From: a virus
Taxonomy: Duplodnaviria; Heunggongvirae; Uroviricota; Caudoviricetes
IMG/VR virus record: IMGVR_UViG_2585427768_000010
Direction: 5' to 3' (one strand)
DNA: 37,430 nucleotides
In this document: piece by piece, positions 7,927 to 33,674 of the stretch
How positions within the stretch are numbered: the stretch's first letter is position 1
Layout of the letters: each line of letters begins with the position of its first letter
Program-made: the position numbers and the translations under genes
The notes under the pieces: generated by a model
What the model saw: the letters and a program-made list of their open reading frames with translations, nothing else
Databases searched by the model: none
What the model was told of the DNA's origin: nothing

Positions 7927-8328
7927 ATGAAAATTTGTATCGATGACGGCTCCACCAACATCAAGCTGGCATGGACTGAGAACGGCGAACGCCGCAACGC
8001 CATCAGCCCGAACAGCTTCAAGTCGGAATGGTCTGCGCCGTTCGGTGGCACGCAGCCCGCGAACTACATGCTTGATGGCGTGCGCTATGGTTTTGATCCG
8101 GTCAGCGATCGCTTTGTCCAGACAACTGACACGCAATACCAGTACAGCGATGTGAATGTCATTGCCATTCATCACGCGCTGGTCAAATCAGGCATCACGC
8201 CACAGGAGGTGGATGTGGTTGTCACCCTGCCACTGAGCGAGTATTTCGACACAAACGCACAGCCGGACATAGCCAACATCAACCGCAAAAAAAGCCCAGG
8301 ATTCCCGGGGCGGTTCAGAGGAGAGTGA
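7927..8328 (+). pseudogene. ParM/StbA-like actin-type ATPase, N-terminal fragment only (133 aa)
   Basis: Translation aligns colinearly with remembered plasmid R1 ParM residues 1 to about 125 (IDDGSTNIKL, SPNSFK, QYSDVNV, HHAL, TLPLSEY, NINRKK) then ends after 9 unrelated residues. Confidence 0.55.
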
Positions 8329-8330
8329 GA

Positions 8331-8822
8331 ATGCAAATTTCACCGGTTACTCTTCGTGTTGCGAAGGCGTTTATATCCAGACATCACCGACACAATAAAC
8401 CCCCGGTGGGGCATAAATTCAGCATTGGTCTGAGAAATGATGCCGGAGAATTGATAGGTGTGGCGACAGCCGGTAGACCTGTTGCACGACATTTGGACGA
8501 TGGATTAACGCTTGAAGTAAATCGCACATGTACCACAGGAGAACGCAACGCTAACAGCGCACTTTATGGTGCTGTCTGGCGGGCAGCAAAGGCTATGGGT
8601 TATCAACGTTGTATTACGTACACCCAGGCAGATGAATCAGGAGCATCTCTCCGCGCAGCTGGTTTTGTTCGTGTGAAAGAGCTTCCTCCAAGAAAAAGCT
8701 GGGCGGAATCAAGCGTCGCCCTGCGGAGTAAACGCGATCCGGTCGGAAACGGTGGTGTTCCTCGTGTGCTCTGGGAAATCAGGAGAATGAGTACCACTGG
8801 CATTCGCATCAAAGGAGAGTGA
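8331..8822 (+). CDS. Hypothetical protein, possibly GNAT-fold acetyltransferase-like (163 aa)
   Basis: AGGAGAG Shine-Dalgarno; weak GNAT-like pattern (GERNANSALYGAVWRAAKAMGYQRCITYT...ASLRAAGFVRV); fold assignment tentative. Confidence 0.45.
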   Translation: MQISPVTLRVAKAFISRHHRHNKPPVGHKFSIGLRNDAGELIGVATAGRPVARHLDDGLTLEVNRTCTTGERNANSALYGAVWRAAKAMGYQRCITYTQADESGASLRAAGFVRVKELPPRKSWAESSVALRSKRDPVGNGGVPRVLWEIRRMSTTGIRIKGE

Positions 8823-18512: not shown

Positions 18513-18654
18513 CCCACCCACATGGGGAAACCTCGGAATATGGGGCGACCGCCTTCTGGATGCACTGGAAACCTGTAACGCGGATAAACGGGCCATTGCT
18601 GAACTGGATAAGAGAATAGCCGAACTGACACACCAGACGGGAGTAACACAATGA
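18343..18654 (+). CDS. lysC: o-spanin lipoprotein (LysC/Rz1-like, 103 aa, GTG start) overlapping lysB out of frame
   Basis: Lipobox LLTGC after signal sequence; proline-rich; starts inside lysB in a different frame and extends beyond it. Confidence 0.55.
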   Translation: MNSYATILQKMNAPTLCLTLVLLTGCAGTQNAPGPAPSVRLIPQTLTMPVTPPPFPDPPTWGNLGIWGDRLLDALETCNADKRAIAELDKRIAELTHQTGVTQ

Positions 18655-20531
18655 CCAGTAAGAACTTTGCACTGATTACAGCCATGACACAGGCTGAACT
18701 GACTCAAAAGGTGAATGAACATCTTGCGAAAGGGTGGCATCTTCAGGGGGAGACGCGGGTTGCCTACGAACCCGGCACCCCGTGGTATCTAATGCAGGCA
18801 ATGGTGGACGATGGCACTACAGACATCTCACCTGATTCCCCCCAGCACGGCAGCGTGCCGGAGTGGTATTACGTGGTGGTACTTGCTGGTCAATCCAATG
18901 CCATGTCATATGGTGATGGAATGCCGCTGCCGGATTCTTACGATGCGCCCCACCCACGCATTAAGCAACTGGCCCGTCGCAACACAGTGACTCCCGGTGG
19001 TAAAGCATGCGCATTTAACGACATCATTCCGGCAGACCACTGCCTGCATGATGTTCAGGATATGAGCGCACTGAATCATCCGAAGGCAGACCTGAGCAAA
19101 GGGCAGTACGGCTGTGTCGGCCAGGGCTTACATATTGCCAAAAAACTGCTCCCGTATATCCCGAATAACGCGGGGATCCTGCTGGTACCATGCTGTCGTG
19201 GTGGTTCGGCATTCACTCAGGGCGCGGAGGGAACATTCAGTACGACCACGGGGACCAGCCAGGATTCGGCGCGCTGGGGTGTGGGTAAACCGTTATATCA
19301 GGACCTGATTGCGCGCACTAAAGCTGCATTACAGAAGAACCCGAAAAATGTGTTGCTGGCGGTGTGCTGGATGCAGGGCGAATTTGACATGAGCGCTGCC
19401 ACCTACGCACAGCAACCGGACCTGTTCACGGCCATGCTGAAGCAGTTCCGTACTGACCTTTCCGGATTTAACGCGCAGTGCCATGGCGGCAGTGCTGCAG
19501 TTGTACCGTGGATTTGTGGCGACACGACGTATTACTGGAAAAACACATACGGCACACAGTATGACTCCGTCTACGGCGCGTACAAAAACAGGGAGAGCGA
19601 CAACGTTTTCTTTGTGCCGTTCATGACCGACGGTAACGGCAACAACACGCCCACCAACTTACCGGCAGAAGACCCGGATATTGCTGATGCAGGTTATTAC
19701 GGCGCGCAATCCCGTAGTAATGGTAATTGGGTATCGTCAAATCGTCCGACACATTTCAGTTCATGGGCGCGCAGGGGCATTATTTCGGATCGCCTGGCAA
19801 CCGCTATTCTGAACGCAGTTGGTCGAACCAGCGCCTTCATCAGCGGTACCGCACCGGAGATTAAACCCTCGCCCGGCGGCGACACTCCATCGGGGCCGTC
19901 TGATGGTGACACATCCGTTCGTACAGTCTCCCTGCTGCCGACAGCCGGAGAGGCTGCTGCGCAGGGCTGGACCATCACCGGCGGCAGTGTTGCGCTGGAA
20001 GATGGTGTGTTTAAGGTTACCAAGCAGAGCAATAAAACCTGGTCCCTGATGCATCCGGTGGATGACGCAGTCTCCCTGCTGACACGGGGTGGCAGACTGA
20101 GCTGTAAGTTTCGACTGTCAGGCGCACTGACCAACAACCAGTTCGGTCTGGGAATTTATCTGTATACCGATGTAGCGTTACCTGACGTCGTGGCGATGAC
20201 CGGGACTGGTAACCCGTTCCTGATGTCGTTCTTCACCCAGACCACAGACGGCAAACTGAATCTGATGCATCACAAGAAAGCCGGAAACACAAAGTTGGGC
20301 GAGTTCGGGAATTACAGTAACGACTGGCAGACGCTGGAGCTGGTGTTCACCGCCGGCAGTGCCACGGTTACTCCGAAACTGAATGGAGTGGCTGGCCCGG
20401 CATTCCAGGTCATAAAAGACAGTCTGACACTGGGGCTGAATGCGCTGACGTTAACTGATATCACTAAAAATGCCGCGTACGGCGTCGATATCGGCAGCCT
20501 GGTGCTGGAAATCAATAATCCCGCAGCATAA
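18651..20531 (+). CDS. NanS-p-like SGNH esterase (putative sialate O-acetylesterase; DUF1737 N-domain plus esterase plus C-terminal domain, 626 aa)
   Basis: N-terminal DUF1737-like segment (AMTQAELTQKVNEHLAKGWHLQGE); SGNH block I VVLAGQSNAMSYG; ATGA overlap with lysC stop; no counterpart at this position in P2. Confidence 0.65.
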   Translation: MTSKNFALITAMTQAELTQKVNEHLAKGWHLQGETRVAYEPGTPWYLMQAMVDDGTTDISPDSPQHGSVPEWYYVVVLAGQSNAMSYGDGMPLPDSYDAPHPRIKQLARRNTVTPGGKACAFNDIIPADHCLHDVQDMSALNHPKADLSKGQYGCVGQGLHIAKKLLPYIPNNAGILLVPCCRGGSAFTQGAEGTFSTTTGTSQDSARWGVGKPLYQDLIARTKAALQKNPKNVLLAVCWMQGEFDMSAATYAQQPDLFTAMLKQFRTDLSGFNAQCHGGSAAVVPWICGDTTYYWKNTYGTQYDSVYGAYKNRESDNVFFVPFMTDGNGNNTPTNLPAEDPDIADAGYYGAQSRSNGNWVSSNRPTHFSSWARRGIISDRLATAILNAVGRTSAFISGTAPEIKPSPGGDTPSGPSDGDTSVRTVSLLPTAGEAAAQGWTITGGSVALEDGVFKVTKQSNKTWSLMHPVDDAVSLLTRGGRLSCKFRLSGALTNNQFGLGIYLYTDVALPDVVAMTGTGNPFLMSFFTQTTDGKLNLMHHKKAGNTKLGEFGNYSNDWQTLELVFTAGSATVTPKLNGVAGPAFQVIKDSLTLGLNALTLTDITKNAAYGVDIGSLVLEINNPAA

Positions 20532-21022: not shown

Positions 21023-21650
21023 GGCATTCACCAGCGTGGATGAAACCTTTGAGGCTATCCGCGACAGCCTGAATCAGCAGGCCATCAATAACATCGCCAG
21101 AAAGCTGGCACAGGATTTACGTCGCGCCCAGCAGGCACGTATCCGATCACAAAAAGCGCCGGACGGGACCGAATGGACACCACGCAGACGCCGCGTAACC
21201 CGGATACAGGAGCGCATTCGCTTTATCTGGAATAACGAAGCACGCACGCTGAAAAACTGGCATCACGACACGGGGAAATACGGGCGAACCATTACCGGGT
21301 GGGATGAGGATAAAAACAATATCCGCACGTTTTACCGGGATGACATCGACCGTTTTCTGGAAATACGCACCCGGCGCATCAACCAGGACAGCACAAAGCG
21401 CGTCCCCATGTTCGTAAAACTGCGCACCGCCCGCTACCTGAAAGCCCGTGCAGATGCCTCCGGTGTGACGGTGGGTTACAGCGGCGTGGCCGCACGTATT
21501 GCACGCGTTCATCAGTTCGGTGAGCGCGATCAGGTTGCGCCGGGCATTTTCACCGATTACCCGGTACGTGAGCTGTTGGGTATCAGCCAGGCAGATGAGC
21601 GCCTGATTTATAACACGGTGCTGGGCCGGATTGCGGAGGCTGTACGGTGA
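21015..21650 (+). CDS. S: Tail completion protein S
   Basis: Position; start uncertain (GTG 21006 or ATG 21015). Confidence 0.75.
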   Translation: MDKAFTSVDETFEAIRDSLNQQAINNIARKLAQDLRRAQQARIRSQKAPDGTEWTPRRRRVTRIQERIRFIWNNEARTLKNWHHDTGKYGRTITGWDEDKNNIRTFYRDDIDRFLEIRTRRINQDSTKRVPMFVKLRTARYLKARADASGVTVGYSGVAARIARVHQFGERDQVAPGIFTDYPVRELLGISQADERLIYNTVLGRIAEAVR

Positions 21651-22228
21651 GCGCAGAACTCATGCGACTGCTGAGCAACATCATCCGCACCGGGATCATC
21701 TCTGAAGTTGATGAGAAGTCCTGGCGCGTGCGCGTTCGCAGCGGCGAACTGGAAACAGGCTGGTTGCGCTGGAACACCACGCGCGCGGGAGCCTTCAATG
21801 TGTGGCTGCCGCCATCACCAGGCGAACAGGTGGTAATTGCCTGCATTGGCGGCAACCCGGAAACCGCCATGATAATTGGCAGCCTGTGGAGTGATGCCAG
21901 TCCGGCCCCCGGCAAAAGCCTGAAAGAAATCGTGGTCAGCGCGCCGGATGGCGCGGTGTTCCGCTACGACGCAGACGCTGGCGCACTGAGCGCCAGCGGC
22001 ATGAAAACAGCCACCCTGCAGGCATCCGTCAGCGTGACACTGGATACGCCCGTCGTGGAATGCACAAACCTTCTGAGAACAGCGACGCTTGACGTCACAA
22101 AAGGGGGAAAGATGTGCGGCAATATCACGCACAGCGGCGGCAACTTCACCTCAAACGGCATCACAGTGCATACGCATAAACACGGTGGTGTGAAAGGCGG
22201 CAGCGATTCGACAGGAGGCCCGCAGTGA
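21647..22228 (+). CDS. V: Baseplate spike protein V (193 aa)
   Basis: Position; C-terminal HTHKHGG apex motif typical of gpV spikes; start GTG 21647 or ATG 21662. Confidence 0.8.
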   Translation: MSAELMRLLSNIIRTGIISEVDEKSWRVRVRSGELETGWLRWNTTRAGAFNVWLPPSPGEQVVIACIGGNPETAMIIGSLWSDASPAPGKSLKEIVVSAPDGAVFRYDADAGALSASGMKTATLQASVSVTLDTPVVECTNLLRTATLDVTKGGKMCGNITHSGGNFTSNGITVHTHKHGGVKGGSDSTGGPQ

Positions 22229-22575
22229 CAACCCGCTACACAGGAATGAATCCGGACGGGACGGGAAACCTGAATGATATGGAGCACCTGAAACAGTCAG
22301 CCAGGGACATCCTGACCACCCCGCTGGCCAGCCGGGTTATGCGACGGGAATATGGCAGCCTTGTACCTGATTTGATTGACGAACCCATGAATAACACCAC
22401 GCGTCTGCAATGCATGAGTGCTGCCGTGATTGCGCTGACACGATGGGAACCCCGCATTGCCCTGGACGCCATCGACGTTGTCTGGAAAGCGGGAGGCCGC
22501 GCCGGGGTGACGCTGTCGGGCACTGTCATGCAGACCATGCAGAATGTTGAGTTAACCATCACGCTGAGGGAGTAA
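22225..22575 (+). CDS. W: Baseplate protein W (116 aa)
   Basis: Size and position. Confidence 0.8.
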   Translation: MTTRYTGMNPDGTGNLNDMEHLKQSARDILTTPLASRVMRREYGSLVPDLIDEPMNNTTRLQCMSAAVIALTRWEPRIALDAIDVVWKAGGRAGVTLSGTVMQTMQNVELTITLRE

Positions 22576-22578
22576 ATC

Positions 22579-23475
22579 ATGCCTGCTGTTGACCTTTCCC
22601 AGTTACCGGAACCCGCCATCATCGCGAAGCCTGATTTTGAGGCAATTCTGGCTGACACAAAGGCCATGATGATTGCGTCCTATCCTGCCGAACAGCGTGA
22701 AGCCGTCTCCGCCGCGCTGGAGCTGGAATCGGAACCCCTGAACGTTATCGCCCAGACAACAGCGTTTCGTGAAATGCTGTTACGCCAGCGGGTCAATGAG
22801 GGTGCACGCGCCTGCATGTTAAGCCACAGCGCCGGGACAGACCTGGACAACCTCGCGGGCAATATGAACACAAAGCGCCTGGTTATCACTCCGGCAACGG
22901 ATACCACCGACGCGGTGATGGAAAGCGACACATCGCTGAGACTGCGGGCGCAACGGGCGTATGACGGTCTGAGTGTTGCTGGCCCGTCAGGCGCATACGA
23001 GTATTTTGCACGCAGCGCCAGCGGTCTGGTACGCGACGCGCGAGCCATCAGCCCGTCTCCGGCCAACGTGACGGTTTCCATCCTGTCCACTGAAGGCGAC
23101 GGCACAGCAACGGAGGCGTTGCTTAATACCGTTCGCGCCGTTCTGAATGCAGAGGATACCCGCCCGGTGGCCGACCGCCTGACCGTACAGAGCGCCAGAA
23201 TCGTGACATGGCGGCTGAATGCAAAACTGTACTTTTACCCCGGCCCGGAATCCGAACCTATTCTGGCCGCGGCTGAATCGTCGTTCAGGAAGTGGCTGGC
23301 TGAGCAGGGGCTTATCGGTCAGGACGTGGCGTTGTCCGCCATTGCTGCCGCACTGCATGTGCACGGTGTGCAACGCGTGGAGATAATCGAACCCACACAG
23401 AATATGGCCATCAGCGACATACAGGCGGCGCGCTGTGAGTCATTCACCATCAGCGAAGGTGGACGCAATGAGTAA
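22579..23475 (+). CDS. J: Baseplate protein J (298 aa)
   Basis: Size and position. Confidence 0.8.
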   Translation: MPAVDLSQLPEPAIIAKPDFEAILADTKAMMIASYPAEQREAVSAALELESEPLNVIAQTTAFREMLLRQRVNEGARACMLSHSAGTDLDNLAGNMNTKRLVITPATDTTDAVMESDTSLRLRAQRAYDGLSVAGPSGAYEYFARSASGLVRDARAISPSPANVTVSILSTEGDGTATEALLNTVRAVLNAEDTRPVADRLTVQSARIVTWRLNAKLYFYPGPESEPILAAAESSFRKWLAEQGLIGQDVALSAIAAALHVHGVQRVEIIEPTQNMAISDIQAARCESFTISEGGRNE

Positions 23476-24076
23476 TTCGTTGTTACCACCATCAGCCAGC
23501 AATTTCATGCGTTGTGCCGAAGCCGTCGGAACACGCATTACAGACATTCCGGTAGACCTCAACACGCTGTGGTCGCCGGACACCTGCCCGGTGCATCTGC
23601 TGCCTTATCTCGCCTGGGCGTTTTCCGTTGACCGCTGGGATCGCAACTGGCCGGAAGAGACAAAGCGACAGGTGATTCGTGATGCATGGCTGATACACCG
23701 ACACAAAGGGACCATCAGCGCACTGCGAAGAGCCGTGGAGCCTCTCGGCTACCTGATTGAAGTAAAGGAGTGGTGGCAACTCAACGAGGAGCCGGGAACA
23801 TTTCGCATTGTTGTCGGAGTACTTGATCAGGGCATCACCGATGAAATGTATCAGGAACTTGAGCGCCTTATTGCGGATGCAAAACCAGTAAGTCGCCATC
23901 TGACGGGGCTGGCGATCAGCCTGAGTGTGAACGGAAAGATTTTCGTTGGTACGGGATGCTATCACGGCGATGCCCTGACGGTTTATCCCTACACCCCGGA
24001 GTCCATTATTGTCGAAGGGGATTATTTCCCTGCCCCGGCCATTCATTTAATTGATAATCTGAGAGTAAACGCATGA
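23468..24076 (+). CDS. I: Baseplate/tail protein I (202 aa from ATG 23468)
   Basis: Position; ATG overlaps J stop. Confidence 0.8.
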   Translation: MSNSLLPPSASNFMRCAEAVGTRITDIPVDLNTLWSPDTCPVHLLPYLAWAFSVDRWDRNWPEETKRQVIRDAWLIHRHKGTISALRRAVEPLGYLIEVKEWWQLNEEPGTFRIVVGVLDQGITDEMYQELERLIADAKPVSRHLTGLAISLSVNGKIFVGTGCYHGDALTVYPYTPESIIVEGDYFPAPAIHLIDNLRVNA

Positions 24077-25668
24077 CAGTGAAATACTACGCCATTCTGA
24101 CTAATCAGGGCGCGGCACGACTGGCTAACGCGACGATGCTCGGCAGTAAGCTGAATCTGACGCGAATGGCCGTTGGTGATGCAAATGGTGTGTTACCAAC
24201 ACCAGACCCTGCACAAACAAAACTGATTAACCAGAAACGCATTGCACCGCTGAATCTTCTGAGTGTTGACCCTAACAATCAGAGCCAGATTATTGCGGAG
24301 CAAATCATCCCTGAAAGCGAGGGTGGATTCTGGATCCGTGAGATTGGTCTTTATGATGATAAAGGTGTACTCATTGCGGTGGCAAACTGCCCGGAAACGT
24401 ACAAACCGCAGTTGCAGGAAGGCAGTGGACGCACCCAGACTATCCGCATGATTCTGGTTGTCACGAACACCGAAGCCATCACGCTGAAAATCGACCCGTC
24501 TGTGGTTCTGGCAACCCGCAAATATGTGGATGATAAAATCTCAAAGCACGAGCAGTCACGACGTCACCCGGACGCCTCGCTGACCGCAAAAGGCTTTGTT
24601 CAACTTAGCAGTGCCACGGACAGTCAATCAGAAACTGAGGCTGCCACGCCGAAGGCTGTGAAAATCGCGTATGATCTGGCCTGGGGAAAATACACAGCCC
24701 AGGATGCAACAACGACCCGTAAAGGGATCGTACAACTGAGCAGTGCCACCAACAGCACCTCTGAAACGCTGGCCGCCACACCAAAAGCCGTCAAGGCGGC
24801 ATACGACCTTGCAGCCGGCAAGGCCCCCGTCAGCCACACTCACCCATGGAGTCAGATAACGGGAGTGCCTGCTGCCTCGCTGACGGCAAAAGGCACCGTA
24901 CAACTGAGCAGTGCCATCAACAGCACGTCTGAAATACTGGCCGCCACACCGAAAGCGGTCAAGGATGCATACGATCTGGCAAACGGAAAACAACCGGCAG
25001 ATGCCACGCTCACTGCTCTGGCAGGACTTGCCACTGCAGCAGATCGGTTGCCTTATTTTACCGGAGCAGACCGCGCAGCGCTGGCAACCCTTACAGCTAT
25101 TGGTCGCGCTATTATCGCTAAGGGCAGTATAAAAGATGTCCTCAATTACCTTGGTTTGGGGGAAGGCTCTGCATTGCCTGTTGGTGTACCGGTTCCGTGG
25201 CCCACCGCCACACCGCCAGAAGGCTGGTTAAAGTGCGACGGGCGCGCCTTTACAAAAGAACAATATCCTGTTCTGGCCAGAGCCTACCCGACCCTCCGTC
25301 TTCCCGATTTACGCGGTGAGTTTATCCGTGGATGGGACGACGGGCGCAAAGTTGATACAGGACGTAAGTTGCTGTCCGCACAAGGGGCAACGCTGTTAAG
25401 AACAGCAATGCTGGATTATTATAACCAGGACACTACGGGAACCTCGGGGATAGTCGGCATGGGATTCAACAATGAAGATTCCATTACAGACCTTCGTGAG
25501 GGCAGCTTTAAAATGCCGGACGGGACAACATTCAGCGATCCTGTCGTGGCAATGTCAGACAATGGTATGCAGGCTACTATTCTGACCTCTATCAGAAGCG
25601 GGTATGCGAAGGGTATCACTGTCAGACCCCGTAGCATTGCACTTAATTACATTGTGAGGGCAGTTTAA
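24073..25668 (+). CDS. H: Tail fibre protein H (531 aa) with constant N-terminal 360 aa and variable C-terminal receptor-binding region
   Basis: Strong match to P2 gpH (AVGD, GGFW.RE.GLYDD.G.LIAVAN, SKHEQSRRHPDASLTAKGFVQLSSAT, DATLTALAGLATAADR, PYFTG); three internal LTAKG..QLSSA repeats. Confidence 0.9.
   Translation: MTVKYYAILTNQGAARLANATMLGSKLNLTRMAVGDANGVLPTPDPAQTKLINQKRIAPLNLLSVDPNNQSQIIAEQIIPESEGGFWIREIGLYDDKGVLIAVANCPETYKPQLQEGSGRTQTIRMILVVTNTEAITLKIDPSVVLATRKYVDDKISKHEQSRRHPDASLTAKGFVQLSSATDSQSETEAATPKAVKIAYDLAWGKYTAQDATTTRKGIVQLSSATNSTSETLAATPKAVKAAYDLAAGKAPVSHTHPWSQITGVPAASLTAKGTVQLSSAINSTSEILAATPKAVKDAYDLANGKQPADATLTALAGLATAADRLPYFTGADRAALATLTAIGRAIIAKGSIKDVLNYLGLGEGSALPVGVPVPWPTATPPEGWLKCDGRAFTKEQYPVLARAYPTLRLPDLRGEFIRGWDDGRKVDTGRKLLSAQGATLLRTAMLDYYNQDTTGTSGIVGMGFNNEDSITDLREGSFKMPDGTTFSDPVVAMSDNGMQATILTSIRSGYAKGITVRPRSIALNYIVRAV
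25139..25164. other. Invertase crossover site A (hix/gix-like, 26 bp), inside H
   Basis: Reverse complement reads TTCCCCCAAACC-AA-GGTAATTGAGGA; compare hixL TTCTTGAAAACC-AA-GGTTTTTGATAA. Confidence 0.5.
25151..25330 (+). repeat. Tail-fibre recombination repeat, copy A (direct orientation)
   Basis: About 170 bp nearly identical to inverted copies ending at 26767 and 27239. Confidence 0.8.
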
Positions 25669-26282
25669 TGAGTAACACTGCAGTTCTGGATGAAAACGGT
25701 ATCGCCACTGTAGCGGGCGATATCACTGTATATCACTATGACGAGGAAACCCGGGAATACACCTCATCCTCTGTGGAGTATCTCGCCCTTGGGGTGGGTA
25801 CTCCGGCACATTCGTGCGCCGATGCACCGCCGGAGGCAATTTCGGGTTACGTGGTTTGCCGGACTGCCACGCTGAACGGGTGGGAGCATGTGCCTGATCA
25901 CCGCGGCGAGACGGTATACAGCACGGAGAACGGTAACCCTGTTCTGATTACCCAACCGGGTGATTACCCGGCGGACACCACCACAAAACAGCCAGCCACG
26001 CCATGGGATACCTGGAACGGTGAGGCGTGGGTAACCGATACTGAACGGCAGCGAGCCGCAGAACTGGAGGTTGCCAGACAGCAACGCCAGCAACGGGTGA
26101 AACAGGCGATGGCGTCCGTCGATCTTATCAACCTCAAACTGCGTGCTGGTCGCAGTCTGACACCAGAAGAAACGGCAAAACTGAACGCCGTGCTGGATTA
26201 TATCGACGAGCTGAACGCACTGGATATCAGCACGGCACCTGAAATCAGCTGGCCGGAAGCGCCACTGGCACTTGCCAGTTGA
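25668..26282 (+). CDS. G: Tail fibre assembly chaperone G (204 aa)
   Basis: Position after H with 1-nt overlap; typical tail-fibre-assembly C-terminus. Confidence 0.8.
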   Translation: MSNTAVLDENGIATVAGDITVYHYDEETREYTSSSVEYLALGVGTPAHSCADAPPEAISGYVVCRTATLNGWEHVPDHRGETVYSTENGNPVLITQPGDYPADTTTKQPATPWDTWNGEAWVTDTERQRAAELEVARQQRQQRVKQAMASVDLINLKLRAGRSLTPEETAKLNAVLDYIDELNALDISTAPEISWPEAPLALAS

Positions 26283-26288
26283 ACGGTA

Positions 26289-26753
26289 TCACGCCGCCCT
26301 CACGATATAGTTAAACGCGATATTGCGGGGGCGGGTTATGTTAAAGAATGCTCCGTTTAATTCGGCTTTTGCGCGACTGTTTGTTCCACCCAGTATTGCG
26401 TACCACAAATAATCGCTACGGTAATTCCCCGCAAACACCTTATCGCCGCCATAGTCAATATTATTTCCGTTACTCATGTACGAGATATCAAGCGCAGAAT
26501 CGTTATCGTCATGACCGCCGACCAGTGTACCTTTCTGCCATGAAAGCAACTTACGCCCCTCGTCAATCTTGCGCCCGTCGTCCCATCCACGGATAAACTC
26601 ACCGCGTAAATCGGGAAGACGGAGGGTCGGGTAGACTCTGGCCAGAACAGGATATTGTTCTTTGGTGAACGTAGCTCCGTTGCACTGTAACCAGCCTGCT
26701 GGCGGTGTGGCGGTGGGCCATGGAACCGGTACACCAACAGGCAATGCAGAGCC
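26289..26753 (-). CDS. Alternative tail-fibre C-terminal cassette 2 (promoterless, about 155 aa; expressed only after inversion)
   Basis: Begins inside inverted repeat copy B in frame with the H constant region (LGEGSALPVGVPVPWPTATPP); ends RPRNIAFNYIVRAA like H. Confidence 0.65.
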   Translation of the reverse strand, partial: GSALPVGVPVPWPTATPPAGWLQCNGATFTKEQYPVLARVYPTLRLPDLRGEFIRGWDDGRKIDEGRKLLSWQKGTLVGGHDDNDSALDISYMSNGNNIDYGGDKVFAGNYRSDYLWYAILGGTNSRAKAELNGAFFNITRPRNIAFNYIVRAA

Positions 26754-26767
26754 TTCCCCCAAACCAA
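26580..26767 (-). repeat. Tail-fibre recombination repeat, copy B (inverted)
   Basis: Reverse complement matches 25151-25330 with a diverged central patch. Confidence 0.8.
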
Positions 26768-26779
26768 CGTTTTTATGCC
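26754..26779. other. Invertase crossover site B
   Basis: TTCCCCCAAACC-AA-CGTTTTTATGCC. Confidence 0.5.
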
Positions 26780-27225
26780 GCCCTTACGATATAATTAAAG
26801 GCAATATTACGAGGACGGTTTTCATTAGCTGTTGGCACGACACGAGAGGCGTCGAATCCAAGGTCATCGGTTTTGTCTATAGTAGTTGTGTTATTCGGCA
26901 TTCTCGCTGATCGTGTTCCTGCATCGTAAAAAGCCCCTCTGATTGCATCAAAAGACATACCGATCCCGCCATCTGCGAATCCCTCAATATTTCTTATTGC
27001 ATCCCCCTGTGAAGATAATAATTGTCGCCCGGCATCCACACCACGTCCGTCATCCCAGCCACGAATAAATTCACCGCGTAAATCGGGAAGACGGAGGGTC
27101 GGGTAGGCTCTGGCCAGAACAGGATATTGTTCTTTTGTAAAGGCGCGCCCGTCGCACTTTAACCAGCCTTCTGGCGGTGTGGCGGTGGGCCACGGAACCG
27201 GTACACCAACAGGCAATGCAGAGCC
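26773..27225 (-). CDS. Alternative tail-fibre C-terminal cassette 3 (promoterless, about 150 aa)
   Basis: Begins inside inverted repeat copy C in frame; different variable region; ends RPRNIAFNYIVRAA. Confidence 0.65.
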   Translation of the reverse strand, partial: GSALPVGVPVPWPTATPPEGWLKCDGRAFTKEQYPVLARAYPTLRLPDLRGEFIRGWDDGRGVDAGRQLLSSQGDAIRNIEGFADGGIGMSFDAIRGAFYDAGTRSARMPNNTTTIDKTDDLGFDASRVVPTANENRPRNIAFNYIVRAA

Positions 27226-27239
27226 TTCCCCCAAACCAA
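27060..27239 (-). repeat. Tail-fibre recombination repeat, copy C (inverted)
   Basis: Reverse complement nearly identical to 25151-25319. Confidence 0.8.
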
Positions 27240-27251
27240 CGTTTTCGTTTT
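27226..27251. other. Invertase crossover site C
   Basis: TTCCCCCAAACC-AA-CGTTTTCGTTTT, close to hix core AAACCAAGGTTTT. Confidence 0.5.
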
Positions 27252-27305
27252 TATCCCTACCTATACCAACTCTGTATTTTTCACGAAACAAAGAGGATGT
27301 TTTTT

Positions 27306-27905
27306 ATGCAAATTGGCTATATTCGTGTGTCAACAAACGACCAGAACACGGATTTACAACGCAATGCACTGAACTGCGCAGGATGTGAACTGATTTTTGA
27401 AGATAAAATCAGCGGAACGAAATCAACCAGACCGGGATTGAAAAAACTGCTCAGAACGCTATCAGAAGGAGATACGCTGGTTGTCTGGAAGCTGGACAGA
27501 CTGGGCAGAAGTATGAAACACCTGATCACGCTTATTGAGGAATTGCGGGAAAAAGGTGTTAATTTCCGTAGTCTGACGGACAGCATTGACACGTCAACAC
27601 CCATGGGGCGTTTCTTTTTTCACGTCATGGGGGCTTTAGCCGAAATGGAACGTGAATTAATTGTAGAGCGTACACTGGCCGGGCTGGCAGCAGCACGCGC
27701 ACAAGGACGCATTGGCGGACGTCGCCCGAAGTTGACAAAAGAACAACACGAGCAAATAGCGAGGCTGATTAAAAACGGTCATGACAGGAAACAACTGGCG
27801 ATCATTTACGACATCGGCATATCGACGATTTATCGTTATCACCCTGTAGGCGATATACAGGCTGAAGAAACAACCAGACAGACTCAGGAAAATGAAAACC
27901 GCTAA
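27306..27905 (+). CDS. Serine DNA invertase, Hin/Gin/Cin/Pin family (199 aa)
   Basis: N-terminal resolvase catalytic domain (IGYIRVSTNDQ with catalytic Ser, VWKLDRLGRS) and C-terminal HTH (ISTIYRY); AGAGGA Shine-Dalgarno before ATG 27306. Confidence 0.9.
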   Translation: MQIGYIRVSTNDQNTDLQRNALNCAGCELIFEDKISGTKSTRPGLKKLLRTLSEGDTLVVWKLDRLGRSMKHLITLIEELREKGVNFRSLTDSIDTSTPMGRFFFHVMGALAEMERELIVERTLAGLAAARAQGRIGGRRPKLTKEQHEQIARLIKNGHDRKQLAIIYDIGISTIYRYHPVGDIQAEETTRQTQENENR

Positions 27906-27921
27906 TCTGACCATTAGCGGT
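27892..27921. terminator. Bidirectional hairpin terminator between invertase and U
   Basis: AAAACCGCTAAT-ctgacc-ATTAGCGGTTTT perfect 12-bp inverted repeat. Confidence 0.55.
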
Positions 27922-27931
27922 TTTGCGTTAA

Positions 27932-28426
27932 TCAAAACAGCCCTTTAACGGAGCTGGCCGCGCTGTTAAGAGATGATGTCACTTTATCTTTGAAGCCGGA
28001 CAGCATATCGCTGAACGATGAGGATTGCAGGCGCTCCCGCAAATCCTCATCACAGCGTTCAAGAGTCAGTGAAAATTCTATCTTTTTCGCCTTACCATAG
28101 CGATCAAACTCGGAACGGGTCGTATTCGTTTCAGTCAGTACATACATGCCGTAAATCTGCCCGACACCATCAATCAGAGGCCAGGGGCGTCCTGTATATG
28201 CCTGCGTGGTCAGCAACGAAAGCGACACTTCGCCACCTGTAATTTCAGGATAAAGCACGCCGGAAAGCACAATGCGATCATCACCTGCGCCGATATACTG
28301 CCAGCCTGCTGAACGGTTAACGCGTTCATTTTTCACATGCCGCCAGCTTTTGTTTTGCTGTAACTGCTGATGCGGCAGCGTGCGCAGCTCAAAAACAAAC
28401 ATGCCGTAGATCATCATCATGGCCAT
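27932..28426 (-). CDS. U: Tail protein U (164 aa)
   Basis: Position immediately downstream of tape measure; size like P2 gpU. Confidence 0.8.
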   Translation of the reverse strand: MAMMMIYGMFVFELRTLPHQQLQQNKSWRHVKNERVNRSAGWQYIGAGDDRIVLSGVLYPEITGGEVSLSLLTTQAYTGRPWPLIDGVGQIYGMYVLTETNTTRSEFDRYGKAKKIEFSLTLERCDEDLRERLQSSSFSDMLSGFKDKVTSSLNSAASSVKGLF

Positions 28427-28432
28427 GACTCC

Positions 28433-31249
28433 TCAATCTTTATCGTAAAAACTGCCCCGCCCGGCACGGGCGCGCCGTTCCATTTCTGCCCTAACCATTT
28501 CACCGACCAGTTTCGCCAGTTCGCGGGGATTCTGTGTAACAATGTTATGCAGATGAACATGAATTTCACCGCCAAATCCGGAGGCAACAGGCTCCCGGTT
28601 ACGGGAAGTTGCAGGAGCTGATGCCACTGGCGATCGTATGGCCTCCGCCACCGGGCGGGAGCTGGCCGCAACAACAGGGACCAGCGCCGGAGGCAGCGGA
28701 GCCGGAACCACGGGTGTGATATTAATTGCGGGGGCAGGCTTACTGACCTGCGCAATCTTCCGCTCCTGCCACTCCCCACGAACAGCAAGTGCGCGGGGCA
28801 GGTTCTTAAAGACAATATCGCCGGGGCCAATGCGTTTTTTCGTCTCATCAACCAGCTTACCTGTGTTATCAGCAATTTTGCTGAGTCTGCGCAGCGTCCC
28901 GGTATTGCTGTCTGTGAGCGGTTTGTTGTCTTTGGGTTTATCACCTCCGGTGCCATTGCCATTTTCCACAGGCTTCGGCGGATTGATTTTCGCCAGGTCC
29001 CCCTGAAGTAAGGCAACCTTGTCCTGAAGAATGGCCGCACGCTGTGCGTCTTCGATTTTCTTGCGCGCCCTTTCCGCTTCATCCGGAAGGACGCCAAGTT
29101 TTTCAAGTATCCACGCCAGCGTATCCAGTAGCATTTTTGCAGGTGTCAGAACAAGTTGTAACGCACCGCCAAGAACGTTACCGAATATCTCGCCAGCACT
29201 GGTACATTTATCCAGCGTTTCCTTGCTGGACTCCATCGGTGACAACAGCGATTTAAACCAGTTAAACACCTGGCTGATCCCGCTTCCGATTGCGTCAAAA
29301 ACAGGACCAAACCGTTCAAAGGTTTCGCGCAACGGGGTCAGCCTTTCCATAATCCCGCTGAACACCCCGGCAAAAAATGCCCTGATGGGATCCCAGTATT
29401 TCCAGATGAGAACGGCAGCTCCGGCAAGCGCAGCCACGATAAGACCGACCGGACTGAACAACGCCCCGATAGCGCCCCCCAGTAACGAAACGGAACCCGT
29501 CACCATTCCCCATAGTGCTGGCAGGAGTCTGACAGCATTCATTGAACCGGTCAGGAGGGAAAAGCCAAGACGCAGTTTTGCCAGCGGGCCAGCAAGCACA
29601 CCAATAGCCAGCGACAACGAGCCAACCGTTGCAGTCATTGCCAGCAACGCACCGCCTGCTATCAGTAGCTGGCGCGTCAGTACCGGATGGGCCTGCGCCA
29701 GCGAGGTGATTTTTTCAAGCACCCGCGTGAGCCACTGCGTGACAGAACGCAGCGGACCGTCAACCAGATCACTGATGCGAATACGAAGACCTTCCCATGC
29801 GCTGTCGAGATTTTTCAGGTCCCCATCAAGATTATCGGCCATTACTTTTGCGACGCGATCGGCCTCTCCCCTTGCCCCCTGCAATTCTCTGGTCAGTTTT
29901 TGCAGCTCTCCTGAACCAGCCGCAGCAACAAGCGTCTGCAAACCAACGAACGCCTCTTCTCCGGCGATGTCCTTGAAGAAGGAAACCTGGTCCACCTGTC
30001 CGTATTTTTGTGTCGCCTTATAGAGATCAAGCAGCACATCCTCCATCGGGCGCATTTTGCCTCTGGCGTCAGCAACTGACACCCCCAGCTCTTTCAGCGC
30101 ATCAGCCGCAGCTTTTGGCGGTGATGCAAGGCGGGACAGACTTGCGCGCATGGCCGTACCAGCATCGCTTCCACGAAGACCATTATTGGCAAGCATCCCG
30201 GCCATGGCCGCCGCTTCTTCAAGACTGATACCAAGTTTTGCGGCAACCGGACCGGTATACTTCATGGTTTCGCCCAGCGCGCGTAAATCAGTATTGGTCC
30301 GGGTGAATGCCGCTGTCAGCGTATCGCCAACCCGGTCCATTTGATCGGCTGTCAGGTTGAACTGTGTGAGGATATTGGAGCCTATATCCGCCGTCTCGCC
30401 GAGTTCGACGCCACCTGCCAGCGCCATATTAAGAACACCGGGCAATGCGGCCTGAATGGCCTGCGGAGTAAAACCAGCCATTGCCAGAAAGCTCTGCCCA
30501 CTGGCGGCATCACTCGCAGTAAACTGTGTTTCAGAGCCAAGTTTTAACGCCTGCTCACGCAGCGCCTTAAACTGCGGGCTGTTTTTGTCGATTCGCGTCA
30601 GTGCCTGAACGCGGGACATCTCTTTGCCGAACCCGATCGCAGGCTGCAAAAAACGCCCGGCAGCATAGCCGCCCGCCGCTGCCGCACCAATTGCCAGCGC
30701 ACCACCTGTTTTCAGTTTTCCCGCGGTTTCCTGCGCGCGCGAATACCGCTCACGCGCCCGCGTTACACGCGCAAGCGCCTGCCGTTCGCGTTCAAGCTGG
30801 TTGTTGTACTGTTCGGTGCGTCTGATGGCCTGCTGGATGGTGTTATCGCTGCCTGTCAGGGAAATGCCGTGGCGTTTCAGCTCTCCGCCAAGCTCCCGCA
30901 TTTTCTGAATTTCCCGTGTGCGCGATTCATTCAGGCGTTCAAGCCGGGTGCTTAACTGCTGCATCAGCTTTTGTTGTTTTTCGCTGAGCACTGTACCCGT
31001 GCGTTGTAACTGATTAAGGGCGTTAAGCTGGCGTCGTGCTTTCACGATACCCGCATCCGCTTTACTGACAGCGTCGCGGGCGCGCTCAAATGATCGCGCC
31101 TGACGCTCGAGATTTTTGATCGCCCCCTGCGTTCGCTGGATGGAGTCACCAAACTGCCCCATCAGGCGGCGGGCGTTTTCGGCAGGCCGGGTCAGCCTGT
31201 CAACGGCGCTGAAAGCGACCCGGATATCAAGAGTCTTCATTGTCTGCAT
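28433..31249 (-). CDS. T: Tail tape measure protein T (938 aa)
   Basis: Long, Ala/Gly/Leu-rich coiled-coil-like ORF downstream of E/E'. Confidence 0.9.
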   Translation of the reverse strand: MQTMKTLDIRVAFSAVDRLTRPAENARRLMGQFGDSIQRTQGAIKNLERQARSFERARDAVSKADAGIVKARRQLNALNQLQRTGTVLSEKQQKLMQQLSTRLERLNESRTREIQKMRELGGELKRHGISLTGSDNTIQQAIRRTEQYNNQLERERQALARVTRARERYSRAQETAGKLKTGGALAIGAAAAGGYAAGRFLQPAIGFGKEMSRVQALTRIDKNSPQFKALREQALKLGSETQFTASDAASGQSFLAMAGFTPQAIQAALPGVLNMALAGGVELGETADIGSNILTQFNLTADQMDRVGDTLTAAFTRTNTDLRALGETMKYTGPVAAKLGISLEEAAAMAGMLANNGLRGSDAGTAMRASLSRLASPPKAAADALKELGVSVADARGKMRPMEDVLLDLYKATQKYGQVDQVSFFKDIAGEEAFVGLQTLVAAAGSGELQKLTRELQGARGEADRVAKVMADNLDGDLKNLDSAWEGLRIRISDLVDGPLRSVTQWLTRVLEKITSLAQAHPVLTRQLLIAGGALLAMTATVGSLSLAIGVLAGPLAKLRLGFSLLTGSMNAVRLLPALWGMVTGSVSLLGGAIGALFSPVGLIVAALAGAAVLIWKYWDPIRAFFAGVFSGIMERLTPLRETFERFGPVFDAIGSGISQVFNWFKSLLSPMESSKETLDKCTSAGEIFGNVLGGALQLVLTPAKMLLDTLAWILEKLGVLPDEAERARKKIEDAQRAAILQDKVALLQGDLAKINPPKPVENGNGTGGDKPKDNKPLTDSNTGTLRRLSKIADNTGKLVDETKKRIGPGDIVFKNLPRALAVRGEWQERKIAQVSKPAPAINITPVVPAPLPPALVPVVAASSRPVAEAIRSPVASAPATSRNREPVASGFGGEIHVHLHNIVTQNPRELAKLVGEMVRAEMERRARAGRGSFYDKD

Positions 31250-31495
31250 TCCCGCTGCGAAGTGCCGCCCGCTCGCGCCAGCTAACCACTTCGCCGGGCG
31301 TCATCATGAAGATTTCGGCGGGCGACCAGTTAAAAATGGCGGCAATATCCGCCACCAGATCTTCGATGTGCTCAAAGCACACCAGGGTGATTACGCTGCC
31401 GTCTCCTGCACGCTCTTCGCGCCAGAGTCTGGCTCGCTCATAAAATTTACAGCCACAGCGCACAACCGAATAAAATCGCGTGACGACATTTTTTT
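31227..31495 (-). CDS. E' extension in the -1 frame (tape-measure chaperone frameshift product E+E')
   Basis: -1 frame opens at the A7 run (minus-strand 31489-31495) inside E and ends overlapping the T start, as for P2 E/E'. Confidence 0.55.
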
Positions 31496-31765
31496 AATCA
31501 TCACTTCATCCAGTCGTGGCGAGGTCACGCGAGGCAACAGCGTGAACATGGTATCCGCTTTCAGATTCAGCACATCAGACAGCGACAGACCACGCAGGGA
31601 TCCCGCCTGCTCAATAGCCCCGGTGATCTCCACATATGTGATTTTTTCGCCACCACGCTCAATTGGCCGGGAAAGTTTTACACCACGTTCGACAGCCATA
31701 TCCTCACCTGCCGTCACATCATCCGCTACGGTGTTATTCCGGGTTTCAGTATCGATATCTTTCAT
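31391..31765 (-). CDS. E: Tail assembly chaperone E (124 aa in zero frame)
   Basis: AAGGAGA Shine-Dalgarno; position between FII and T; contains slippery A7. Confidence 0.75.
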   Translation of the reverse strand: MKDIDTETRNNTVADDVTAGEDMAVERGVKLSRPIERGGEKITYVEITGAIEQAGSLRGLSLSDVLNLKADTMFTLLPRVTSPRLDEVMIKKMSSRDFIRLCAVAVNFMSEPDSGAKSVQETAA

Positions 31766-31820
31766 CAGTTGTCTCCTTTTCAGTCAGAGGCGACGCACTG
31801 CGCCGCCTGCATATTACTTA

Positions 31821-32333
31821 TCAGCCAAGCCCAAGCGCGGAACGAATGCGGTCAGGCACAATGTCCTTGCCGTCCTTCCGGTAGATGTGGTTCAACAGGT
31901 CGATTTCCAACAGCGGGCGATCGTTAACGCTCAGCTTGTAGTAGGTGTTTTTGACAGCGTAAGTGTGTGATGTGGCTTCGCCCTGTTTGGCCTCCCCCAT
32001 ATCAATTTCCGTCACACGCCCGCGCATCTCGATTTCATACAGATCGCTTTCTGCATCGGTGTAGTATTCACCCGCAAAACGCAGCAGCGTGCCGTCAATC
32101 GTGCCGCCATATTTAAGGAACAGCGCACGAACAGCTCCCCCCATAACAAAACTCGCATCAAGCGCGGAGTCGTCCAGACCGAGATCAATACTTACCGCCC
32201 CCATCATGCCACCACCACGATAGCTGTCGGTTTTGCGCGTCAGTTTGGGCGGCGTGACGGACGTCACCTTACCCACTTCGTTTTCACCATCCACAAACAG
32301 CGTAAAAAAGCGAAGATGTTTTGGTACAGCCAT
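31821..32333 (-). CDS. FII: Major tail tube protein FII (170 aa)
   Basis: Size and position after sheath. Confidence 0.85.
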   Translation of the reverse strand: MAVPKHLRFFTLFVDGENEVGKVTSVTPPKLTRKTDSYRGGGMMGAVSIDLGLDDSALDASFVMGGAVRALFLKYGGTIDGTLLRFAGEYYTDAESDLYEIEMRGRVTEIDMGEAKQGEATSHTYAVKNTYYKLSVNDRPLLEIDLLNHIYRKDGKDIVPDRIRSALGLG

Positions 32334-33517
32334 CAGGCACCTCCCAGCACCGCAAATGCGGGACCAAAGAATTCATCAGTAAACGACTGGTAAAGCTCCA
32401 TGTCTTCCAGCGGGGGAACAGGCGTATATTTGTAGCGAATACGCACGCGCCCCTGACGTAAATTCGTGGTGCCGTTATCCACCACGTCATACCAGCACGA
32501 CGCCCCAATCAGTTTCCCGGCAGTAACCAGTGAATCCAGTTTTGCCCTGATGGCACTGATAACATCTTTCACGTTCGCAGGCGTCAGTGGACTGTCGATG
32601 GTTTCAAACTGCGCTTCCGCAATTGAATCAGCCAGCACCTGTGCGGTTCGGGTATACACCTCAAAGATGTAGGCGTTCGTTTCCGGTGTGCGGTTGCCCC
32701 AGAAGCGGAACCCGTTGCGACGAATAATGGTCGTGATTTCTTTGTTGTTGAGGCTATTGGCATCGCTGTCTTCGGCCTGCAACGACCAGAACACATGCCT
32801 GGACATCCCCAGCACATTTTTAACCGGAACGTTGGACAGTGATTTGTGCCATCCCTGCTCATGGTCAATGTACGCACGAAGGCCGCACGCATAGGCAGGC
32901 GCGGGGAACGTTTCGTTTTTGCCACTTTTCGGGTTGTAGGCGATGAAGTCCGGCCATAAGAGCATCACCTCACGTTCGTTGAATTTCTGGCGGTAGGTAA
33001 TCGCCTCAGCCATCGTGTTACAGCCGTGACATGAGGCATACACAAACGCGCGCAGTTTACCCGCAATCACGCACAGGGATTTTGTCACCGCCTCCGTGTC
33101 CAGCTCCGGCGCGGCCAGAATACGCGGACGGTATCCGATGCTTTCATCCTGCTCTGCAACAAGCAGCGCATACATCCCCGTATAGCTGCCGTCAGATTCA
33201 GAACCACCGATAACCAGTTGATCCTGCGTCTTTCCGTCTTCTTCTTTGTGTTCAGCCACGCGAACGACGATCACCTTTGTGCTCACCTGGTCTGCGATGG
33301 CCTTAAGCGCACGATAAAGCGTCCCCGTTGTCCCGCATTTTCCCAGCACGTCATTGACGCGGGTCAGCAGTGTGGGCTTGTTCAGCGGGAACAGCTTCGC
33401 GTCCGCATCATCCGCCGTTGCCACGATACCGATAACGCTGGAATCAACATCGTTAATCGCTGTTACCAGGTCGGTATTTTCCGTAACACGGGCACCATGA
33501 AAACGAGTTTCACTCAT
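32333..33517 (-). CDS. FI: Tail sheath protein FI (394 aa)
   Basis: Size and position. Confidence 0.85.
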   Translation of the reverse strand: MSETRFHGARVTENTDLVTAINDVDSSVIGIVATADDADAKLFPLNKPTLLTRVNDVLGKCGTTGTLYRALKAIADQVSTKVIVVRVAEHKEEDGKTQDQLVIGGSESDGSYTGMYALLVAEQDESIGYRPRILAAPELDTEAVTKSLCVIAGKLRAFVYASCHGCNTMAEAITYRQKFNEREVMLLWPDFIAYNPKSGKNETFPAPAYACGLRAYIDHEQGWHKSLSNVPVKNVLGMSRHVFWSLQAEDSDANSLNNKEITTIIRRNGFRFWGNRTPETNAYIFEVYTRTAQVLADSIAEAQFETIDSPLTPANVKDVISAIRAKLDSLVTAGKLIGASCWYDVVDNGTTNLRQGRVRIRYKYTPVPPLEDMELYQSFTDEFFGPAFAVLGGA

Positions 33518-33525
33518 AGCTTTAG

Positions 33526-33620
33526 CCCCTTGTATCCGTTAAATGATTCGGCAACAATCATCACCCACCACGCGCGTAATCTCACCCCTGTGCCGTTCTC
33601 CCGATCCGGCGACAACAAAA
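33526..33620. promoter_or_regulatory. Candidate late-promoter elements in the FI/D divergent intergenic region
   Basis: CCCCTTGTATCCG and CCCCTGTGCCGTT...ACAACAAAAAG resemble the motifs in the P/O intergenic region. Confidence 0.4.
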
Positions 33621-33674
33621 AGCAGTAACCCCCTCCGCACGCACATGCGACCATGCCGCACAGGGAGGGAACAG

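Follow-up and report, generated by a model that had tools for sequence, protein, structure and literature searches.

Results

The window, by which we mean the whole analyzed stretch of 37,430 nt, carries a complete P2-like (P88/Xuanwuvirus-like) E. coli prophage, with its genes apparently complete from the integrase through gpD. The constant part of its tail-fibre gene H (24073-25150, plus strand) encodes the N-terminal domain and the fibre repeats (Pfam Phage_tail_fib at residues 1-150, E = 9e-62, and Phage_fiber_2 repeats) and extends to a crossover core. This core, the dinucleotide TT at 25151-25152, belongs to the 26-bp crossover site A inside H (25139-25164, plus strand; TCCTCAATTACC-TT-GGTTTGGGGGAA). 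In tip c1, the one now expressed, the conserved N-terminal half of the tail-collar domain (Pfam Collar, residues 371-418 of H) is encoded by repeat A (25148-25387, plus strand), which is followed by the variable part of this tip (25388-25668, plus strand). The start of the tail-fibre assembly (chaperone) gene tfa (25668-26282, plus strand; Pfam Caudo_TAP, E = 3.5e-28) overlaps the H stop, and tfa lies within the invertible DNA.

Two further tip cassettes, most likely silent as long as they are not fused to H, follow on the minus strand. Cassette c2 (26289-26767; Pfam Collar, E = 1.4e-15) consists of a variable part at 26289-26541 and repeat B at 26542-26770, and cassette c3 (26773-27239; Pfam Collar, E = 3.1e-16) of a variable part at 26773-27002 and repeat C at 27003-27242. 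They are headed by crossover site B (26754-26779, minus strand; GGCATAAAAACG-TT-GGTTTGGGGGAA, core 26766-26767), whose left half overlaps the c3 stop codon and 3' flank, and by site C (27226-27251, minus strand; AAAACGAAAACG-TT-GGTTTGGGGGAA, core 27238-27239), which aligns with gixR of phage Mu. A spacer of 63 nt (27243-27305, plus strand), presumably the invertase promoter region, separates site C from the start of a gene for a Gin/Hin-type serine DNA invertase of 199 residues with the nucleophile Ser9 (27306-27905, plus strand). The spacer is 100% identical in every relative compared, including E. coli E2348/69. A hairpin with terminator-like features on both strands (27895-27924) lies between the invertase gene and the convergent gpU gene. 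In a consensus scan of the window, neither c2 and c3 nor the invertase gene had a promoter-like site upstream; the sole match, at 27013-26986 on the minus strand, is below chance expectation.

The presence of three repeats, one direct in H and two inverted, had already been recognized when the sequence was read alone (below, the sequence-only reading), but their length of about 170 bp was underestimated, as they span about 235 nt (229-240 nt). A repeat search returned the inverted pairs 25148-25387/27003-27242 (240 nt, 90% complementary) and 25148-25376/26542-26770 (229 nt, 90%); repeats B and C are direct with respect to each other and 85% identical. All three repeats, which are thus 85-90% identical, open with the 16-mer TTGGTTTGGGGGAAGG, and in the alignment their homology starts exactly at TT-GGTTTGGGGGAAGG. 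Exactly three copies of the 16-mer are present in the window, where 0.41 would be expected, and none of 100 shuffles reached this count. The hix-like 26-bp sites at the repeat starts read as previously claimed, on the opposite strand as TTCCCCCAAACC-AA-GGTAATTGAGGA at site A, with AA-CGTTTTTATGCC at site B and AA-CGTTTTCGTTTT at site C. Sites A, B, and C share identical right halves and the TT core, one on the plus and two on the minus strand, and their left half-sites are degenerate, with only 5-6 of 12 positions symmetric with the right half.

No further crossover site with up to three mismatches to the 16-mer was found in the window, and a looser search with AAACCNNGGTTT, allowing one mismatch, returned only sites B and C. 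Secondary crossover sites were also considered as the cause of the inversion of the FI-U tail block relative to P2, and none was found in the window. As the 16-mer is expected by chance a few hundred times in 596 Gb of contigs, a scan of this collection was uninformative on its distribution; nearly all of the 120 matches listed were single chance matches in unrelated phyla.

The assignment of the invertase to the Hin/Gin family was borne out by its Pfam domains (Resolvase, E = 2.4e-51; HTH_7, E = 1.4e-12) and by matches to the Mu Gin structures 4M6F and 3UJ3 (E about 1e-91). In NCBIfam, no family scored above cut-off with the invertase, and the fibre proteins had no match. The protein is 73% identical to Mu Gin, and the alignment with 4M6F is gap-free over residues 1-185. 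Ser9 falls in IGYIRVSTNDQ, and the catalytic serine is therefore intact; its mutation would have spoken against an active enzyme. The C-terminal helix-turn-helix matches the Hin DNA-binding domain 1HCR (E = 1.6e-11). In this class of invertases, the recombinational enhancer has two Fis sites within roughly 60-65 bp and lies inside the 5' end of the invertase gene, at a distance of about 100 bp from a crossover site. From its position, a putative Fis-dependent enhancer may be placed at the 5' end of the invertase gene (27330-27400, plus strand), about 100 bp from site C. Its alignment with the corresponding 5' part of Mu gin shows high identity, but as the stretch is coding sequence, conservation does not prove enhancer function. 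Kahmann et al. (1985) reportedly located a stimulatory site within the invertase gene. Only those invertases that contact Fis and the enhancer conserve basic residues at Hin positions 47, 48, and 51 as well as Gln151, Arg154, and Leu155 (PMC3798978), and the invertase of the window has all of them as K46, K47, R50, Q150, R153, and L154 (offset of -1 relative to Hin, taken from the 1HCR alignment). Dependence on Fis and an enhancer is probable.

All three cassettes have open reading frames. When the constant part of H is joined at the core to c2 or c3, open frames of 518 and 514 residues result, confirming that both cassettes are in frame with H. All three tips contain the tail-collar domain and are homologous to the distal tip of T4 gp37 (2XGF, E = 1e-14), including the shared C-terminal strand NIAFNYIVR. 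A common C-terminal tail had been proposed and is indeed shared, although not with the exact sequence given: the end is RPRSIALNYIVRAV in c1, with S where N was claimed, and RPRNIAFNYIVRAA in c2 and c3. The same cassettes are common to P2-like prophages, a fliZ-adjacent prophage remnant, and P1-like phage-plasmids, and RefSeq labels equivalent cassettes 'partial' or 'pseudogene' in some genomes.

The predicted fusion of H to c2 or c3 by inversion between sites A and B or A and C is found in nature. Two complete E. coli genomes carry exact inversion isomers of the same cassettes, AVS0542 (L008) the A×B isomer with c2 fused to H, and AVS0225 (L013) the A×C isomer with c3 fused to H. Their cassettes are 99-100% identical to those of the window, the constant part of H is identical across the isomers compared, and tfa is inverted in both; the isomers are from different genomes and are not variants within one culture. 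For this cassette set, state 1 was seen in L001 and L002, state 2 in L008, and state 3 in L013 (states as defined in the Discussion). Junctions of state 4 were found in L005, L004, and L012, and c3 is fused to H also in L005 and L012. Among complete E. coli genomes, with matches covering at least 80% of the query, the predicted H-c2 junction is present in 103 and the H-c3 junction in 16.

The pairs L001/L008 and L001/L013 show that both exchanges, A×B and A×C, are reciprocal. These two independent breakpoints, mapped at high resolution, both lie in one 19-nt interval (-3 to +17) that contains the TT core and sits at one edge of the roughly 240-nt homology. On the cassette side, the junctions have no mismatch over 260 nt, and all polymorphisms from +17 on travel with the cassette. 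That both exchanges occurred in the same core interval at the edge of the homology points to site-specific rather than homologous recombination.

Discussion

The switch is real and active in nature, and we are highly confident that the locus is a site-specific multiple-inversion switch for tail-fibre host range. Judging from its relatives, this particular lysogen probably switches as well. In the proposed mechanism, the invertase would pair site A in H with the oppositely oriented site B or C, cut at the central TT/AA dinucleotide, and invert the intervening DNA, so that each inversion would swap the last 155-173 residues of H for c1, c2, or c3. As each site heads a conserved stretch of roughly 235 nt that encodes half of the collar domain, inversion always preserves the reading frame. 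State 1, that of the window, has H-c1 followed by tfa in forward and c2 and c3 in reverse orientation. State 2 would consist of H-c2 followed by tfa, c1, and c3, all reversed; state 3 of H-c3, forward c2, and reversed tfa and c1; and state 4 of H-c3, forward c1 and tfa, and reversed c2. With three sites so oriented, four DNA arrangements and three expressed tips are possible. The sequence-only reading, which spoke of a three-way switch, was thus right about the tips but not about the DNA states; it also did not include the flipping of tfa with the segment or the prior publication of such a switch. As one tip is expressed per genome, a lysogen population would release phages of mixed receptor specificity (bet-hedging), given that the three tips probably differ in their receptors.

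The assembly gene is translationally coupled to c1, and in the state of the window the co-oriented assembly gene accompanies c1 only. When tfa flips with the segment, as in states 2 and 3, its orientation is opposite to that of the late operon, and c2 and c3 are left without a co-oriented assembly gene; in state 4, it lies once more downstream of H. It is conceivable, albeit rather doubtful, that the switch controls the chaperone as well as the tip. If so, either folding of c2 and c3 needs no co-expressed assembly protein or working c3 fibres arise only in state 4, and the fourth state would be functionally distinct and not redundant.

As inverted repeats of roughly 235 nt with 85-90% identity are long enough for occasional exchange, RecA-dependent homologous recombination could in principle have generated the isomers, with the invertase being incidental. 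This is extremely improbable, because both exchanges fall into the same 19-nt interval, for which the chance is about (19/240)^2 = 0.006 if crossovers are uniformly distributed over about 240 nt, and because a Gin-type site alignable with gixR marks the exact start of the homology. Moreover, in E2348/69, whose repeats are 92% identical, variants coexist at 10-50% in single colonies (PMC4272514), which indicates a rate far above that of homologous recombination.

It is likewise very unlikely that the cassettes are leftover duplicates of tail-fibre genes in a frozen switch copy that no longer operates. Such a relic would agree with the single orientation in the window and with the 'partial' and 'pseudogene' labels of equivalent cassettes in RefSeq. 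However, the invertase frame is intact and retains the residues for catalysis and enhancer contact, the 16-mer is perfect at all three sites, all three cassettes are open, the prophage appears complete from the integrase to gpD, and near-identical prophages occur in three or four different states.

The locus shares with Fis/enhancer-dependent invertase systems the catalytic domain, the helix-turn-helix, the contact residues, the 26-bp sites, and the reciprocal exchange at the core. The invertase shares its fold and Ser9 with Mu Gin, and site C, the spacer, and the gene start align in the same register with gixR-gin, although the crossover core is GA in gixR and AA/TT in the window. Inversion of the Mu G segment also gives a tail-fibre gene another C-terminal part, but Mu has two sites, two states, and an assembly gene for each variable part (U and U'), whereas the window has three sites, four states, and one assembly gene. 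The C segment of P1 with its invertase Cin follows the same principle, and classical P1 has two states. The P1-like plasmid pKY1497_2 carries the c1, c2, c3, and tfa sequences of the window (99-100% identity) beside its own invertase, which is 86% identical in protein sequence to that of the window, and has four tips. In the P segment of e14, which is inverted by Pin, the crossover half-site is nearly identical (AAACCTTGGTTTGGGAGAAGG versus TTGGTTTGGGGGAAGG in the window) and a tail-fibre C-terminus is likewise fused, but e14 has two sites and is a defective prophage.

More than two sites, a Gin-family invertase, and shuffled C-terminal tail-fibre cassettes are also known from Min of p15B, which Sandmeier, Iida, and Arber are said to have described in 1992 and which reportedly has six crossover sites and hundreds of isomers. 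The proposed resemblance to Min-type systems thus holds for the multi-site shuffling but not for the number of sites, and the comparison is loose, since the window has three sites and four isomers. The R64 shufflon also selects one of several adhesin C-termini by multiple inversion, but its enzyme Rci is a tyrosine recombinase and that of the window a serine recombinase. With invertible tail-fibre cassettes, a temperate phage hedges its bets on host receptors, and such cassettes repeatedly give rise to misassembly and to 'partial' or 'pseudogene' annotations in E. coli genomes. The locus brings no new principle; it offers a clean natural series of three or four states with breakpoints at base level, which is useful for annotation and for the engineering of phage host range.

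The closest counterpart is the invertible tail-fibre locus of E. coli O127:H6 strain E2348/69 (NC_011601.1, 1891695-1893703). By sequencing and PCR, Goldberg et al. (2014, Genome Med; PMC4272514) demonstrated three inverted repeats in this P2-like prophage, with four coexisting variants and three C-termini. Its genes are arranged as in the window: V-W-J-I-H are followed by an invertible segment that contains a single tfa and two additional tips, and then by the invertase, the convergent gpU, and the tape-measure gene. Both loci have three partially homologous repeats of 215-240 nt between H and gpU, one in H and two inverted, and hence three sites, four states, and three C-termini. The E2348/69 repeats open with the same ACCTTGGTTTGGGGGAAGG, and its invertase matches that of the window at 197 of 199 residues (99.0%; 99.2% at the nucleotide level). 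In E2348/69, spans of about 1.6 and 2.0 kb are inverted, compared with 1.62 and 2.09 kb in the window. The cassettes, in contrast, are other alleles, with repeats 73-77% identical to those of the window, mostly unrelated variable parts, and a tfa of 59% identity, and the E2348/69 reference sequence represents state 3, the window state 1. The system is therefore not as unusual as the sequence-only reading suggested: a nearly identical switch was already published with experimental evidence in 2014, and the window is an ordinary, well-preserved example of this known system.

Organization of the tail-fibre locus

By its gene content, the window contains a complete P2-like prophage, which neighbors tRNA-Gly, tRNA-Cys, and tRNA-Leu genes and a CDP-alcohol phosphatidyltransferase gene that is probably pgsA. 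The integrase (1-1002) and replication protein A (5028-7850) are followed by portal, terminase, capsid, and lysis genes, and then by the baseplate genes V, W, J, and I (21647-24076), the tail-fibre gene H (24073-25668, + strand), and the tail-fibre assembly gene tfa (25668-26282, +). Between tfa and gpU, we found the ORFs c2 (26289-26762, − strand) and c3 (26773-27291, −), each with a Pfam tail-collar domain, and a 199-residue invertase ORF (27306-27905, +) with Resolvase and HTH_7 domains.

A repeat search identified inverted repeats at 25148-25387 and 27003-27242 (rA and rC, 240 nt, 90% identity) and at 25148-25376 and 26542-26770 (rA and rB, 229 nt, 90%), and rB and rC are in direct orientation to each other (85%). 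The repeats are thus longer than the roughly 170 bp of the sequence-only reading. In a three-way alignment of the repeats, the homology starts abruptly at TT-GGTTTGGGGGAAGG, and nothing upstream of this point is common to A and B or C. The 16-mer of the site occurs exactly three times in the 37 kb, compared to 0.41 expected occurrences, and three were reached in no shuffle. Written as 12+2+12, the crossover sites are TCCTCAATTACC-TT-GGTTTGGGGGAA (A), GGCATAAAAACG-TT-GGTTTGGGGGAA (B), and AAAACGAAAACG-TT-GGTTTGGGGGAA (C), with identical right half-sites and degenerate left half-sites. The stretch from site C through a 63-nt spacer into the beginning of the invertase gene aligns with gixR and gin of phage Mu in the same register. 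The repeat search, the 16-mer count, and the Resolvase and HTH_7 domains confirm the previously proposed three-site arrangement with an adjoining invertase.

The alignment of the invertase with Mu Gin (PDB 4M6F, 3UJ3; E about 1e-91, 73% identity) is gap-free, and Ser9 lies in the motif IGYIRVSTNDQ. McLean et al. (PMC3798978) described residues that are conserved only in Fis/enhancer-dependent invertases, and the window invertase carries them, namely the basic residues K46, K47, and R50 of helix B and, in helix 1 of the DNA-binding domain, Q150, R153, and L154. A putative Fis-dependent enhancer is suggested by its position and its resemblance to gin.

Several further features were observed. In canonical P2, the FI-FII-E-T-U tail block has the opposite orientation; relative to that order, the block of the window (27932-33517, −) is inverted, and gpD (33543-34784) remains on the + strand. 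A search of the block borders for a crossover-like site found none, and gpU and the tape-measure genes are convergent with the invertase in every relative examined, including E. coli E2348/69. A 626-residue ORF (18651-20531, +) between the lysis genes and the tail genes R and S has DUF1737, SASA sialate O-acetylesterase, and DUF6645 domains; it looks like cargo resembling the NanS-p esterases of Stx prophages. At 7927-8822 (+), a 133-residue ORF has a match to ParM/StbA that is limited to the N-terminal part, and the 165-residue ORF after it has a weak, sub-threshold match to the Mom family. The H shaft contains tandem fibre repeats (24589-24989; three copies of about 101 nt, spaced by 132 and 168 nt), and as this region is 168 nt longer in seven fetched relatives (L002-L004, L006-L008, and L013), the fibre length is polymorphic.

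Three alternative tips and one assembly gene

The tips c1 (fused to H in the window), c2, and c3 have their first 65-75 residues in common (GLGEGSALPVGVPVPWP...RGWDDGR) and differ in the middle 75-95 residues. The last strand is also shared, as had been read from the sequence, but as RPR[NS]IA[FL]NYIVRA, with N or S at the position that had been given as N. The tips are homologous to the distal tip of the T4 long tail fibre protein gp37 (2XGF, E 1e-14) and also to T4 gp12, and 2XGF has the same C-terminal NIAFNYIVR strand. As both conserved ends match 2XGF while the middle differs, the variable middle is probably the receptor-contacting part.

There is one tfa for the three tips, and its ATG overlaps the stop codon of H/c1. 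As tfa flips with the segment, it is antisense to the late operon when H is fused to c2 (state 2) and in one of the two H-c3 arrangements (state 3). The same single-tfa design is present in E2348/69 and in a four-cassette P1-like plasmid; by contrast, the tip resembling c3 in locus L014 has a separate tfa behind it, which is 53% identical.

Inversion isomers in other genomes

Among 5,426 complete E. coli genomes, megablast with the locus as query identified close relatives with 97-99% identity, and we mapped the window segments onto several fetched loci. DA33135 (L001) and 190693 (L002) are colinear with the window (state 1). AVS0542 (L008) has H-rB-c2 with tfa, c1, and rA inverted and c3, rC, and the invertase unchanged, which is the exact A×B product (state 2). 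AVS0225 (L013) has H-rC-c3 and rB-c2 with tfa, c1, and rA inverted and adjoining the invertase, which is the exact A×C product (state 3). Every segment in these four loci is 99-100% identical to the window. The state-4 junctions, in which the left flank of B joins rA with c1 and tfa forward and c2-rB lies beside the invertase, are present in three places: in OZ040015 (L005), in TUM13770 (L004) with a different first cassette, and in the four-cassette P1-like plasmid pKY1497_2 (L012). Synthetic junction queries, with at least 80% of the query covered, matched H-c2 in 103 complete genomes and H-c3 in 16; most matches among the best listed were single pieces with at least 98.9% identity. When the part of H that ends at the core is fused to c2 or c3, the reading frame stays open for 518 or 514 residues, respectively. 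These in-frame fusions and the two exact isomers support the earlier proposal that inversion swaps the tip.

To place the exchanges, we followed the positions at which rA, rB, and rC differ from one another in this lineage. Both the A×B and the A×C exchange are reciprocal, and both breakpoints lie between -3 and +17 from the first G of GGTTTGG, an interval that includes the TT core and is followed by 260 nt with 0 mismatches. As two independent exchanges fall at the very end of a homology of about 240 nt, the breakpoints argue for site-specific inversion and against homologous recombination.

Two assemblies deserve mention. L005 (NZ_OZ040015.1, 2649-4813) carries two copies of c3, one joined to H and the other silent beside the invertase, and its tfa is cut off at nt 587 of 615 and followed by an additional partial site of 55 nt. 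The arrangement resembles a chimera in which a left half in state 4 meets a right half in state 1 or 2, and it is possibly an assembly artefact from a culture with mixed orientations. In Escherichia sp. MOD1-EC7003, three contigs of 1.0-1.7 kb (L026, L053, and L062) start 56 nt ahead of a crossover site, as would be expected if short-read assembly is interrupted at an invertible locus with multiple repeats.

Four arrangements and possible loss of c3

With X as the A-to-B segment (c1, tfa, and c2) and Y as the B-to-C segment (c3), the reachable arrangements are XY, X'Y, Y'X', and Y'X. The last two place site B in the same direction as A and opposite to the site next to the invertase, so that X can flip alone. 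The sequence-only reading of a three-way switch thus holds for the three expressed tips but not for the arrangements, which number four, with c3 predicted to be expressed in two of them. A deletion between the sites in direct repeat would eliminate c3 from states 3 and 4. A two-site relative lacking c3 (L003, NZ_OZ040035.1; Al-rA-c1-tfa-c2'-rB'-Cl, with Al and Cl as left flanks of A and C; 99-100% identical) exactly matches the predicted deletion product of state 4 and may have arisen in this way. L007 is also a two-site locus, and its second cassette is a different allele.

Comparison with known systems

In a 2023 survey, phage tail genes are listed as loci where programmed inversion recurs, and according to a 2024 preprint, P2-like phages frequently have a DNA invertase and inverted adjacent genes at this hotspot. 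Sequences of c1, c2, c3, and tfa (99-100% identity) are also found in the P1-like phage-plasmid pKY1497_2 (NZ_AP019805.1) and in a fliZ-interrupting prophage remnant beside fliZ/fliA (L011, NZ_CP032261.1), both with an invertase that differs from that of the window (86% protein and 74% nucleotide identity). Judged from these sequences, the cassettes together with their sites form a module that is exchanged between unrelated phages.

In paired-end data of E2348/69, Goldberg et al. (2014; PMC4272514) observed "two interlaced funnels" in a P2-like prophage, with three partially homologous inverted repeats and four coexisting variants that were confirmed by PCR (their Table S1: NC_011601.1 1891695-1893703, repeat starting with ACCTTGGTTTGGGGGAAGGCTCTGCA...). 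That locus, whose reference sequence is in state 3, has the same gene order as the window, an invertase with 197 of 199 residues identical, a 100% identical spacer, and a gpU gene with 98% nucleotide identity, whereas its cassettes are other alleles and its repeats are 73-77% identical. As gene order, invertase, and spacer match while the cassettes differ, the window is, by sequence comparison, an allelic version of this experimentally characterised switch, and the system is thus already known.
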